From: Escherichia coli
GTDB taxonomy: Bacteria; Pseudomonadota; Gammaproteobacteria; Enterobacterales; Enterobacteriaceae
NCBI RefSeq assembly: GCF_048403405.1
Contig: NZ_CP183129.1
Reading direction: 5' to 3' (one strand)
DNA length: 64,000 bases
In this document: positions 1-4,424 of the stretch, in pieces
Numbering within the stretch: position 1 is the stretch's first letter
Layout of the letters: each line of letters opens with the position of its first letter
The notes under the pieces: generated by a model
Databases searched by the model: none
What the model saw: the letters and a program-made list of their open reading frames with translations, nothing else
Told to the model about the DNA's origin: nothing
Position numbers and translations under genes: made by a program

Positions 1-158
1 GGTGATAGAAATAACTCACCATCCAGAGTTGAGAATCTCGGGGTGGCGAGACGTACAGGGTTCTCAACACCGGAGAGCAAAGAATCCGGCCCGACCGAAG
101 TCGGCCCCGTACGCCCCGCCATAATTCTGACGCGAAAAAGACGTGGCAATACAGTACG

Positions 159-286
159 CACAAAAAAACCGCTTGCGCGGTTATGCGCTTTGCTCTGTAT
201 CGGGTTGAGAATCCCGGCACCCGTTTTATGAGGTGCAGCGGAAATGTAACCTGACCGATTGAGGCATGGCAAGCGGTTTTTTTGTG
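159..286. repeat. 18-bp perfect inverted repeat pair (CACAAAAAAACCGCTTGC at 159-176, GCAAGCGGTTTTTTTGTG at 269-286) flanking 92 bp
   Basis: Read directly from the sequence; the two arms are exact reverse complements. Confidence 0.7.
160..183 (-). terminator. Terminator-like hairpin on the minus strand (AACCGC-GCAA-GCGGTT followed by T7)
   Basis: 6-bp stem, GCAA loop and a run of 7 T on the minus strand, about 120 nt downstream of the 305..604 ORF. It lies inside an open minus-strand frame, so its function is uncertain. Confidence 0.35.
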
Positions 287-1132: not shown

Positions 1133-1246
1133 TTATTCGCCAGTGAAAAAGCGTTCAATCTTTTTTACTGAATGAATAATTCGCATAATCCCAATGGCGC
1201 AGGCCACAGAAATAATCAGAACAAGCCATGAGATAAATATACTCAT
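1133..1246 (-). CDS. small hydrophobic peptide (37 aa, MSIFISWLVLIISVACAIGIMRIIHSVKKIERFFTGE), single predicted transmembrane helix
   Basis: Not in the ORF track (<60 aa). Its ATG overlaps the TGA of the upstream 80-aa ORF as ATGA; hydrophobic N-terminal helix then a basic tail. Translated manually from the reverse complement. Confidence 0.45.
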   Translation of the reverse strand: MSIFISWLVLIISVACAIGIMRIIHSVKKIERFFTGE

Positions 1247-1794: not shown

Positions 1795-2136
1795 TTATAA
1801 ATCAGCCTGTTTAATAAAACTTTGTCCGCGAAGCAGACGATCAACCGTGCGTAGTGCTTCGTATAATGTGAAATCCTGCCCGAACTGATTTTCGCCGCTG
1901 CTTAGAGCAAAAATGCGGTTTCCAGTAAACGGGTTGCGTGGGCATTTGTGGACCACGATTCCAGCTTTCTCAATCAGCCAGGCATGCTCGCCGATTTGTT
2001 TTACTGGGTAGCCATCCGGCGTTGCGTGTGTATCACTCAGGCTGTAGCGGATGTTGCTGCGTGATGCACTGGTAGCGAAACGATTAGCGTGACGTTCAGC
2101 ACCATTACGAAAGCGTGAATTACGTTGCTGTTTCAT
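1795..2136 (-). CDS. hypothetical prophage early protein (113 aa)
   Basis: ORF whose ATG sits 1 nt after the stop of the preceding small ORF (TAAcATG). Confidence 0.55.
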   Translation of the reverse strand: MKQQRNSRFRNGAERHANRFATSASRSNIRYSLSDTHATPDGYPVKQIGEHAWLIEKAGIVVHKCPRNPFTGNRIFALSSGENQFGQDFTLYEALRTVDRLLRGQSFIKQADL

Positions 2137-2137
2137 G

Positions 2138-2245
2138 TTAAAGACTCTGTACAGATTTAATTATTCCGGCATAGCGGCCGAACTCAAAATATTTGCGATT
2201 AAATCGCATCGCATTGTTTTCACGTTGTGCGGACTGCTGGTTCAT
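2138..2245 (-). CDS. small basic peptide (35 aa, MNQQSAQRENNAMRFNRKYFEFGRYAGIIKSVQSL)
   Basis: Not in the ORF track. Its ATG overlaps the TGA of the upstream hydrophobic peptide as ATGA, and its stop is 1 nt before the next gene's ATG. Confidence 0.4.
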   Translation of the reverse strand: MNQQSAQRENNAMRFNRKYFEFGRYAGIIKSVQSL

Positions 2246-2349
2246 TTTCGTTTGCCTCCGCACATGAGAATTACGCCGCTTAAGAGGTAACCGAAGTTAA
2301 TTGATAGTATTACAATTAACATAAGGTCCAATTTGTCCATGCCACACAT
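2242..2349 (-). CDS. small hydrophobic membrane peptide (35 aa, MCGMDKLDLMLIVILSINFGYLLSGVILMCGGKRK)
   Basis: Not in the ORF track. A GAGGG Shine-Dalgarno sits 6 nt upstream of the ATG at 2349 (alternative in-frame ATG at 2361 and 2340). One hydrophobic helix followed by a basic KRK tail. Confidence 0.45.
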   Translation of the reverse strand: MCGMDKLDLMLIVILSINFGYLLSGVILMCGGKRK

Positions 2350-2388
2350 AATTACCCTCATTGCAGTAGTTGTGGTTTATCAGGTTTC

Positions 2389-2595
2389 TCACCCGATAAA
2401 CCAGATAACAAACGCTATAAACATCGCCCCAATAGCTGCCGGGAAAAGCCCTTTGGTATAAGCGGCGATATATTCAATGCTGAGTTCAATAAAGCGTTCT
2501 TCATGTCCCGTTAACTTACGAAACAAATAGATCGCTATTACGCCTATCTCAATAAAAACAAGGGTCAGAATGGCGCTGATGATATGGCTGGTCAT
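2389..2595 (-). CDS. small predicted two-helix membrane protein (68 aa) immediately downstream of cox
   Basis: ORF starting 6 nt after the Cox stop; two hydrophobic segments separated by a charged loop. Confidence 0.55.
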   Translation of the reverse strand: MTSHIISAILTLVFIEIGVIAIYLFRKLTGHEERFIELSIEYIAAYTKGLFPAAIGAMFIAFVIWFIG

Positions 2596-2601
2596 TTATG
2601 A

Positions 2602-2889
2602 CTAAAGCCCCAGCCACAACAACCATGCATCGCGGCGTTCTTTCGGTTGCTCAAAAAACGCTTTGCGCATGCCTTCGTTAAATGCTGGCAGATATACCCA
2701 GTTTTCTGATGCACGCGTCTTTACTGAACCTGGTTTCACAAAGTCAATTGTCGGTAGCTTTGCTGCGTCAATCATGGTTCTGACTGTGGATTCCTTGCGG
2801 CCGATCATCTTGGCGAATAGTTGATATGGCACCGCTTCAAGTGGATATGGTGCTACCTGAATGAAGCCCCCAAGCTCTGATTCGCTCAT
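2602..2889 (-). CDS. P2 Cox-like protein (excisionase / early-promoter repressor), 95 aa
   Basis: Recognisable similarity to phage P2 Cox (e.g. WVYLPA and WL.WLGL motifs) and divergent position next to the C-like repressor. Confidence 0.8.
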   Translation of the reverse strand: MSESELGGFIQVAPYPLEAVPYQLFAKMIGRKESTVRTMIDAAKLPTIDFVKPGSVKTRASENWVYLPAFNEGMRKAFFEQPKERRDAWLLWLGL

Positions 2890-2911
2890 TGTGGTAATCT
2901 CCCTAATTCGT

Positions 2912-2947
2912 TCGAATGGCTCAAAATGGCTTATATCGGCTTATTTG
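2912..2947. promoter_or_regulatory. three 10-bp-phased direct repeats (GGCTCAAAAT, GGCTTATATC, GGCTTATTTG) in the C/cox intergenic region: candidate operators
   Basis: GGCT recurs at 2918, 2928 and 2938. P2-type C repressors are known to bind direct repeats, so these are plausible operators; this is not demonstrated. Confidence 0.4.
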
Positions 2948-3002
2948 AGTGTTTTTATGTTTGTGCCCGATGTGGCATGTTGCGATGGAGGATATGCCCG
3001 AT

Positions 3003-3323
3003 ATGGCATCTTTGTCAAGCATGGGTGAAAAATTTCGCCTGATTCGTGAAGCAGAAGGTATGACCCGCCAGGAGTTTGCGGATTGTGTTGGGCTGCCTTA
3101 TGGGACGGTAACTAACTATGAGGTGAGGGGGAAGCAAGTAACAGAGGGTGCCTTACTTAAGGTTACGAAACACCCTAAATTTAAGAAATATGCTTATTGG
3201 TTATCAACAGATGAAACGATGCCGGAGGTTGGGCAAATTTCTCCGGCTCTCTCTCTTGATGGTTCCTGCAATTCGGAGGGAGATCGTGTTTCAACCGAAA
3301 CAATCCAAAAATTATCCCGCTGA
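3003..3323 (+). CDS. P2 C-like immunity repressor (HTH), about 106 aa
   Basis: Track ORF 2949..3323 trimmed to the ATG at 3003 (GGAGGA Shine-Dalgarno upstream). HTH region and C-terminal tail resemble P2 C (GLPYGT.., KYAYWL.., GQISPAL). Confidence 0.8.
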   Translation: MASLSSMGEKFRLIREAEGMTRQEFADCVGLPYGTVTNYEVRGKQVTEGALLKVTKHPKFKKYAYWLSTDETMPEVGQISPALSLDGSCNSEGDRVSTETIQKLSR

Positions 3324-3419: not shown

Positions 3420-4424
3420 ATGTCGATTAAGAAGCTCGAAGATGGTCGTTATTTGCTGGACATCAGGCCGAACGGACGCAAGGGAAAGCGCGTGCGTAAG
3501 GTATTTGACAAAAAATCGGTAGCGGTGGCCACTGAACGCTACATCATGGCGAACGCTGAAAAGCGGGAATATATACAGGGCTACCGTGATCGTCGAACGC
3601 TAAATGATTTGCTTGAGTTGTGGTGGATGTATCACGGCCAGCACAGGCGTAAGGCAGAAGAAGACCGAAAACAACTGCGCAACATAATCAATGAGCTTGG
3701 CGCTGATATGCAGGCTGTGGATCTTGATAAGCTAAAAATTATCGCGTGGCGTTCTCAAAAGATAGCTGATGGATTGAAACCGTCATCTGCTAACAGATAC
3801 ATGAATCGGTTATCCGGAATGTTTACCGTACTGAAGAAAATAGGCCTCTGGGATGCAGAACATCCGGTAAGGGGAATTTCTATTCTTTATGTATCTCCAC
3901 GAGAAATGGCTTTCCTGTCCCAGAAGGAAGTGGCGTTATTGCTCGATACACTGGAGGGCGATTACTGGCGTGTTGCGCTTTTGTGTTTAAGCACGGGGGC
4001 GCGCTGGAGTGAAGCCTGTAAGCTTCGTGGTGAACAGATAGTTCATAACCGTGTAACGTTTCTTGAAACCAAAAATGGCCGAAAGAGAACAGTGCCAATT
4101 TCGCAGGCAGTTTGTGAGGCGATCAAAACCAGAGAAACAGGCGGCTTGTTTGAGGTGAAGTACCGGGAATTCTGCTTGGCGCTGAAAAGAGTTAAGCCCG
4201 ATTTGCCAAAAGGCCAGGCTGCACATGTGCTGCGGCATACGTTCGCCAGCCATTTTGTGATGAACGGAGGAAACATTATTGCGCTTCAGAAGATTCTTGG
4301 CCACGCAACCATTCAGCAAACAATGGCATATGCACATTTTGCACCGGATTACCTGCAGGATGCGGTGGCCCTTAATCCGCTGAAAGGTGGCGTGAGTGTC
4401 CACGCAGTGTCCACGGGGGATTAA
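3420..4424 (+). CDS. int: P2-family tyrosine integrase (334 aa)
   Basis: Strong similarity to P2 Int across its length (MSIKKLEDGRY.., LCLSTGARWSEA, IVHNRVTF, HVLRHTFASHF, YAHFAPDYLQDA). Start taken at the ATG at 3420, 7 nt after GGAGGG. Confidence 0.9.
   Translation: MSIKKLEDGRYLLDIRPNGRKGKRVRKVFDKKSVAVATERYIMANAEKREYIQGYRDRRTLNDLLELWWMYHGQHRRKAEEDRKQLRNIINELGADMQAVDLDKLKIIAWRSQKIADGLKPSSANRYMNRLSGMFTVLKKIGLWDAEHPVRGISILYVSPREMAFLSQKEVALLLDTLEGDYWRVALLCLSTGARWSEACKLRGEQIVHNRVTFLETKNGRKRTVPISQAVCEAIKTRETGGLFEVKYREFCLALKRVKPDLPKGQAAHVLRHTFASHFVMNGGNIIALQKILGHATIQQTMAYAHFAPDYLQDAVALNPLKGGVSVHAVSTGD

Follow-up and report, generated by a model that had tools for sequence, protein, structure and literature searches.

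What does a small membrane protein do when its gene stands directly behind cox, among the first early genes of a P2-like prophage? Prophages of this kind are among the commonest in Escherichia coli, and their early operons are usually viewed as collections of regulatory and replication genes. The question was raised by a stretch of 64,000 nucleotides of an E. coli chromosome (referred to below as the window), in which an earlier note had pointed out an open reading frame for a 68-aa two-helix membrane protein directly behind cox, starting 6 nt past the Cox stop codon. The note had also stated that this protein is made once the early promoter fires, and had offered superinfection exclusion or lysis timing as its candidate roles. 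We refer to the gene as tm68.

The first ~4.4 kb of the window were the right end of a P2-like prophage located next to pdxB, and this segment was 100% identical to many complete genomes. The annotation of strain CRE1540 placed a complete P2-type set of virion, lysis and replication genes to the left of the window. The closest sequenced phages belonged to the genus Xuanwuvirus (P88-type Peduoviridae). Left of the window, between its replication and portal genes, the same prophage encoded a ParM-type segregation protein together with a partition/stability protein (L001, 15098-16376), which was unusual for an integrated P2-like phage. The features that surrounded tm68 were the following.

3420-4424, plus strand: integrase.
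3003-3323, plus strand: C-type immunity repressor with a helix-turn-helix, divergent from cox.
2989-3018 (read 3018-2989), minus strand: Pe-like promoter TTGACA-18-TATCCT, found by consensus scan and assigned by analogy with P2 Pe.
3009-2995 and 2978-2964, 31 bp apart: two 15-bp direct repeats, ATGCCAYATCGGGCA, read from the sequence.
2602-2889, minus strand: cox, which encodes 95 aa and opens the early operon (phrog_272; Pfam Phage_Cox, E 1.3e-22).
2389-2595, minus strand: tm68, a predicted 68-aa membrane protein (WP_000200501.1; phrog_14475), supported by ORF calling, the PHROG match and RefSeq.
1795-2136, minus strand: DUF4761 gene, the first conserved early gene past the variable slot (Pfam DUF4761, E 4e-69).

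Further small early genes were found beyond the DUF4761 gene. Further down the early operon Rfam also returned two adjacent RNA matches above their gathering scores, namely a C4 antisense RNA (39-126, minus strand, 78.5 bits) and the Hfq-binding RNA isrK (162-236, minus strand, 63.1 bits). These matches suggest that an antisense control module similar to that of P1 and P7 may be present in this P2-like prophage.

The tm68 gene extended on the minus strand from an ATG at 2595-2593 to a TGA at 2389-2391 and encoded the 68-aa protein MTSHIISAILTLVFIEIGVIAIYLFRKLTGHEERFIELSIEYIAAYTKGLFPAAIGAMFIAFVIWFIG, which was present in RefSeq as a 'hypothetical protein'. Its junction with cox read ...CTT TAG TCA TAA ATG. 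The spacer between the cox TAG (2604-2602) and the tm68 ATG was TCATAA, in agreement with the 6 nt given earlier, and the start codon was unambiguous since an in-frame TAA codon stood immediately before it. The length of tm68 was no proof that it is a gene because spurious ORFs of this length arose often by chance and were numerous in the ORF list of the window. We therefore relied on the other lines of evidence. Pairwise Nei-Gojobori comparisons with diverged homologues gave dN/dS values of 0.18-0.41 at dS of 0.45-0.97, and purifying selection was seen for alleles down to 59% identity. The protein was a full-length member of phrog_14475, a PHROG family without functional annotation (E 2.3e-41, positions 1-68 of 68). 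Moreover, 331 of the 5,426 complete E. coli genomes retained it at a coverage of 80% or more, always under the annotation 'hypothetical protein'. The family consisted of 47 clusters at 90% identity, nearly all of them 66-68 aa long and 67-99% identical to the query, and it was found in Escherichia, Shigella, Salmonella and Citrobacter, exclusively in P2-like prophages. The low dN/dS, the full-length PHROG match, the number of clusters and the number of genomes, taken together, indicate that tm68 is a real coding gene under purifying selection. We also considered this stretch as an RNA element instead of a protein, and rejected the idea because of the dN/dS values and because Rfam gave no match in 2100-3000.

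A search of 1.84 billion cluster representatives with a profile returned only the tm68 family itself, a sister clade from Salmonella and one spurious repeat protein (P0051). The Salmonella proteins were 71 aa long and ~30% identical to tm68. They had the same architecture and, in a P2-like prophage whose early genes were otherwise different, were likewise encoded just downstream of a Cox gene. When a profile of both clades was run against 5.8 billion proteins, no further clades were found.

The sequence predicted a hydrophobic hairpin. The 19-residue Kyte-Doolittle means peaked at 2.5 (residues 5-23) and 2.3 (residues 49-68), and a Hessa-type summed insertion score was -0.6 and -0.2 kcal/mol for the two hydrophobic segments versus +13 for the loop. 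Helix 1 was assigned to approximately residues 5-25 and helix 2 to 49-68, with a charged loop (26-48) between them. With two hydropathy peaks and a Pfam-confirmed Cox gene upstream, the earlier description of the product and of its location was correct. Lys and Arg were confined to the loop, with 4 such residues in the E. coli clade and 8 in that from Salmonella, and the termini, 4 and 0-1 residues long, were nearly uncharged, with no or one Lys/Arg. Since the positive charges were all in the loop, the positive-inside rule would place the loop in the cytoplasm and both ends in the periplasm. The protein had essentially no periplasmic domain; its C-terminus (...VIWFIG) was within helix 2, and no charged residue followed K48.

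An AlphaFold2 model based on 28 homologues had a mean pLDDT of 75 and contained three helices (residues 2-28, 31-46 and 50-66). The middle one was amphipathic, with E33, E37 and E41 sharing one face. The loop was conserved as RKLTGHEERF...EY..A..KGLFP. Residues G18, I22, K27, F35 and A45 were conserved in both clades, residues A21, Y23, E41, Y42, A44, K48, G49 and P52 were near-invariant in both, and most of the positions conserved across the clades fell within the loop or at the ends of the helices. The membrane-embedded E16 was invariant in the E. coli clade, but it provided no firm mechanistic handle because the Salmonella clade had Tyr at this position.

Comparison with related prophages revealed that tm68 belonged to a discrete insertion, which contained two more ORFs.

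2137-2601, minus strand: accessory cassette of tm68, tm35 and bas35, 465 bp (alignment with L082, slot survey, P88).
2242-2349, minus strand: tm35, a 35-aa single-helix ORF, MCGMDKLDLMLIVILSINFGYLLSGVILMCGGKRK, preceded by a GAGGG Shine-Dalgarno sequence at a distance of 5 nt.
2138-2245, minus strand: bas35, a 35-aa basic ORF, MNQQSAQRENNAMRFNRKYFEFGRYAGIIKSVQSL, with a GGAGG Shine-Dalgarno sequence upstream and a start that overlaps the tm35 stop (ATGA).

The cassette was inserted exactly between the cox stop codon and the DUF4761 ATG. Two 'empty' prophages with the same 95-aa cox (L082 and L078) had an 11-nt spacer, CGAGGATTTTT, in place of the 465 bp, and in phage P88 cox was directly followed by the DUF4761 gene. 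When 80 viral contigs with DUF4761 were surveyed, tm68 was present in 29, and 45 had none of the proteins searched for (tm68, tm35, bas35, the 140-aa and the 137/163-aa proteins). The remaining contigs encoded unrelated 140-aa or 137-163-aa proteins, some with reverse-oriented partners. In complete E. coli genomes tm68 was found at 335 places compared with 1,590 for DUF4761 (~21%), and the DUF4761 gene itself was present in 1,419 of 5,426 genomes. Thus, tm68 is an accessory, dispensable and exchangeable gene found in roughly one of every five prophages of this kind. As a small membrane protein without known relatives, its product was the commonest occupant of the slot between cox and DUF4761. 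The gene was also located exactly where the mosaic changes from the immunity module to the early module. Judging from these alignments, the cox-DUF4761 junction is a cargo slot, right behind cox, whose contents can be exchanged, and tm68 appears to have arrived there as a precise promoter-less insertion. We consider the recognition of this slot to be the most useful new point of the analysis.

The other occupants of the slot were proteins of 140, 163/137, 69 and 48 aa as well as reverse-oriented proteins of 63, 78, 97 and 146 aa. Family searches with them gave nothing informative, the sole match being phrog_2266, whose function is not annotated either. Reverse-oriented ORFs of 63-219 aa were located in L079 (2143-2802, minus strand), L105 (2474-2665, minus strand), L104 (2602-2838, minus strand) and L099 (3176-3469, minus strand), and the phrog_2266 match came from one such ORF in P88-like prophages. 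Because these ORFs are oriented opposite to Pe, their expression in the prophage state is conceivable, and they could be better candidates than tm68 for cargo that protects the lysogen.

Both tm35 and bas35 were annotated in the P88_4B11 phage record and absent from the RefSeq E. coli annotation. The segment containing them was found in 234 genomes, always at 95% identity or more, and the tm68 allele of at least 95% identity was likewise present in 234. On the other hand, 97 genomes with diverged tm68 alleles did not have this segment. Therefore, tm68 was the old conserved element of the cassette and tm35 and bas35 were its recent companions. The idea that tm68 is an antidote to tm35 in an immunity-like pair was also considered and set aside: tm35 was found only with the tm68 allele of at least 95% identity, in a single cassette, which is linkage and not a test of dependency. 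The tm35 product ended in KRK and resembled a type-I toxin in size and shape.

Diverged versions of bas35 were observed at other loci (L109, 2040-2200; L079, 2050-2196; L026, 4346-4534). The bas35-like ORFs started with M-N-(K)-Q-Q, like the DUF4761 protein, and in L109 the bas-like ORF was continuous and in frame with DUF4761. These observations suggest that a duplicated 5' end of DUF4761 may have given rise to the cassette junction, or that the DUF4761 protein may carry an N-terminal extension that varies. Another single-helix ORF of 37 aa, MSIFISWLVLIISVACAIGIMRIIHSVKKIERFFTGE, was located in the early operon (1133-1246, minus strand). It was named 'membrane protein' in P88 (gp07) and was conserved in the diverged relatives L007 and L031. 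Since this ORF adds to tm68 and tm35, the early operon encoded at least three tiny membrane proteins.

The position of tm68 also allowed us to judge when it is likely to be expressed. As in P2, the -35 hexamer of the Pe-like promoter shared sequence with the first codons of the divergently transcribed C gene, and the ATGCCAYATCGGGCA repeats flanked the -10 hexamer. This geometry was the same as that of the annotated P2 Pe and O1/O2, and by analogy the repeats are likely operators for the C repressor, comparable to O1/O2. Consensus scans from Pe to tm68 detected neither a further promoter-like site nor anything resembling a terminator. In related loci the cox-type gene ahead of tm68 was one of at least four that are unrelated to each other (95, 173, 180 and 94 aa), and the spacers were 6, 8, 26, 0 and 10 nt. 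The sequence 5' of the tm68 ATG changed from one cox type to the next, even immediately before the start codon, and a Shine-Dalgarno sequence was weak in all the related loci compared. Since the upstream sequence was not conserved between the cox types, tm68 brings no promoter or expression signals of its own.

Having no promoter of its own and standing behind a repressor-controlled Pe, tm68 should be off in the lysogen. We infer from this layout that it would be transcribed only from Pe, at the lytic stage. Its translation is probably coupled to that of cox because of the short spacer and the weak Shine-Dalgarno sequence, and for the latter reason the level of the protein may be very low. The claim that tm68 is made once the early promoter fires was in line with this layout, in which no other promoter-like or terminator-like sites intervene between Pe and the gene.

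The earlier note had proposed profile and structure-based homology searches and had named clear homology to a characterised non-defence protein as one outcome that would speak against its reading. No such homology was found, and nothing informative emerged beyond the protein's own family. Pfam contained no passing match; its scan of 28 family members gave only sub-threshold hits to DUF5540 and other membrane-protein noise. We rejected DUF5540 and consider it compositional noise: the best E-value that any of the 28 members gave was 0.0017, at a score that did not reach the gathering threshold, and the match was confined to the loop. NCBIfam gave no match, PADLOC gave no family at E-values up to 1, phrog_14475 was the sole match in PHROGs, and fold searches produced no informative structural match. 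Thus, superinfection exclusion had no homology or structural support in PADLOC, Pfam, NCBIfam, PHROG or fold searches. No paper in the literature named WP_000200501, and the papers on Xuanwuvirus and on P2-like early operons were silent on this gene. Overall, tm68 is an already catalogued, functionally uncharacterised accessory small membrane protein. This result is useful for annotation, ordinary and not surprising.

Which function would be compatible with all these features? We tentatively favor, at somewhat less than an even chance, the view that tm68 is a non-essential, early-lytic accessory inner-membrane hairpin of P88-like (Xuanwuvirus, P2-type) prophages that acts on a membrane or membrane-proximal target in the host. 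According to this model, tm68 would be transcribed from Pe only and translated by coupling to cox, and its product would be present minutes after infection or derepression and absent from a stable lysogen. It would insert in the inner membrane as a hairpin with its tiny termini in the periplasm, exposing on the cytoplasmic face the amphipathic loop of ~22 residues, which was its best-conserved part. Because there is no room for an enzymatic or DNA-binding domain, the protein would most likely act like other small membrane proteins and inactivate an inner-membrane protein of the host by binding to it. The likeliest consequence would be an infected cell that resists the entry of more phage DNA or a membrane-linked process of the host, and T4 Imm would then be the nearest functional precedent. 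The conservation of the loop is equally compatible with targets unrelated to phage entry. We ranked lytic-phase interference, with a block of DNA entry foremost, above arrest of division or envelope growth, followed by counter-defence, prophage-expressed exclusion and lysis timing.

The most probable alternative was inhibition of cell division or envelope growth, which we nevertheless consider unlikely. Here, tm68 would bind a membrane component of the divisome or elongasome early in lytic growth, as a counterpart of 186 Fil, lambda Kil, SPO1 gp56 and Caulobacter SidA. The gene occupied the same operon region as 186 fil and dhr, and its product was small, non-essential and, by its position, probably expressed early. 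Small membrane proteins that inhibit division are known, SidA and gp56 being the precedents. However, tm68 had no sequence similarity to Fil or Dhr, and it did not have an extracytoplasmic domain.

A broader proposal is that tm68, possibly together with tm35 and bas35, founds a hitherto unrecognised class of cox-coupled early membrane effectors in P2-like phages, for example as a membrane-embedded inhibitor of a host inner-membrane defence or of a DNA-entry component. We regard it as decidedly unlikely. If it were true, then the cox-DUF4761 junction would join the accessory-gene hotspots of P2-like phages as a third one, not described before, and its cargo would belong to the lytic phase.

A step lower in probability, and in our opinion rather improbable, was a role in counter-defence, in which the early tm68 protein would neutralize a membrane-associated host immune effector. 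A variable, often exchanged slot at the very start of an early operon is a typical layout for anti-defence cargo, and the patchy presence of tm68 (~21% of related prophages) fits such a role. On the other hand, tm68 was similar to none of the known anti-defence families, and the family was narrow and not obviously diversifying (dN/dS below 1). Moreover, the other occupants of the slot likewise had no assigned function, so the position alone gave no support.

Two further explanations appeared very improbable, to about the same degree. According to the first, tm68 is expressed from the prophage and mediates superinfection exclusion or lysogenic conversion in the manner of HK97 gp15 or P22 SieA. 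Exclusion proteins are often small inner-membrane proteins encoded in accessory slots (PMC11436027, PMC10461980), and tm68, as a predicted small inner-membrane protein in an accessory slot, matches this description. However, it was co-directional with cox, had no promoter of its own and depended on a Pe flanked by operator-like repeats, all of which would keep it off in the lysogen, and it had no PADLOC match. Exclusion may instead take place during lytic growth, as with T4 Imm. According to the second, tm68 is a functionless passenger that is translated but dispensable and hitch-hikes at a recombination junction. Its location exactly at the boundary between the immunity and early modules and its absence from most relatives would agree with this, but the purifying selection (dN/dS of 0.2-0.4, with alleles down to 59% identity) and a 30%-identical sister clade with the same architecture and position argue against it.

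Lysis timing, the other role suggested earlier, with tm68 as a holin, pinholin or antiholin, is the least credible of all: the two transmembrane helices expected of a class II holin or pinholin were there (hydropathy 5-23 and 49-68) and 68 aa is also the size of the phage 21 pinholin, but the protein ended inside helix 2 without a charged cytoplasmic C-terminal tail, had essentially no periplasmic domain, matched no holin family in Pfam or PHROGs and was encoded by the second gene of the early operon, where holin expression would be counter-productive, instead of in the late lysis cassette by the endolysin, and the prophage had a complete late cassette of its own with holin, endolysin and LysB/C-like genes (holin and M15 peptidase at L001 5765-6477 in the late region, ~16 kb from tm68).

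Should tm68 indeed prevent superinfection, stop cell division or act against a membrane-based defence, it would be a new small effector and its location a new hotspot to search.

Our preferred reading, an early-lytic hairpin that acts on a host membrane target, can be compared with several known systems. P2 Orf78 and 186 CII, Fil and Dhr are encoded at the same place as tm68, namely by the first genes after cox or apl in the Pe or pR operon. The statement in the earlier note that small regulatory or host-interference genes hold this slot in P2/186-type phages was broadly correct, with Orf78 there in P2 and cII followed by fil and dhr in 186. The tm68 protein was unrelated to any of these, and in P88-like phages the slot was variable and often empty. 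Unlike tm68, P2 Orf78 is a basic soluble protein of 56 aa, and 186 CII, Fil and Dhr are soluble as well. In a phmmer search at maximum sensitivity against a five-sequence database, all comparisons of tm68 with these four proteins were below 2 bits with E-values above 0.1.

Type I toxins of the Hok/Ldr/TisB type have a single helix, fewer than ~55 aa and an antisense RNA. In comparison, tm68 had 68 aa and two helices, and Rfam gave no family in 2100-3000, a search that a novel antisense RNA could escape. The similarity to the morons HK97 gp15 and P22 SieA was closer in one respect. Like them, tm68 was an accessory membrane protein gene placed between two genes that are neighbours in related phages (465 bp compared with 11 nt in L082 and L078). 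However, HK97 gp15 and P22 SieA have signals of their own for expression in the prophage, whereas tm68 was part of a repressed early operon, and neither consensus scans nor the upstream comparison revealed a promoter and terminator of its own. It also had no homology to either protein.

T4 Imm is a small, early-made inner-membrane protein for superinfection immunity that has hydrophobic helices, is non-essential and does not contain an enzymatic domain. The tm68 protein shared its small size, hydrophobic helices, non-essential character and lack of an enzymatic domain, and would share early lytic expression. It differed in that it had no sequence relationship to Imm (neither the Pfam scan of 28 members nor PHROGs placed it in the Imm family), belonged to a temperate P2-like phage and was probably coupled to cox. 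Finally, tm68 resembled MgrB, AcrZ and SidA, which are also shorter than 80 aa and almost wholly embedded in the membrane. It had no homology to them, and unlike them it was phage-borne and would be expressed in the lytic phase. For proteins of this type, the only plausible mode of action is binding to a larger membrane protein.
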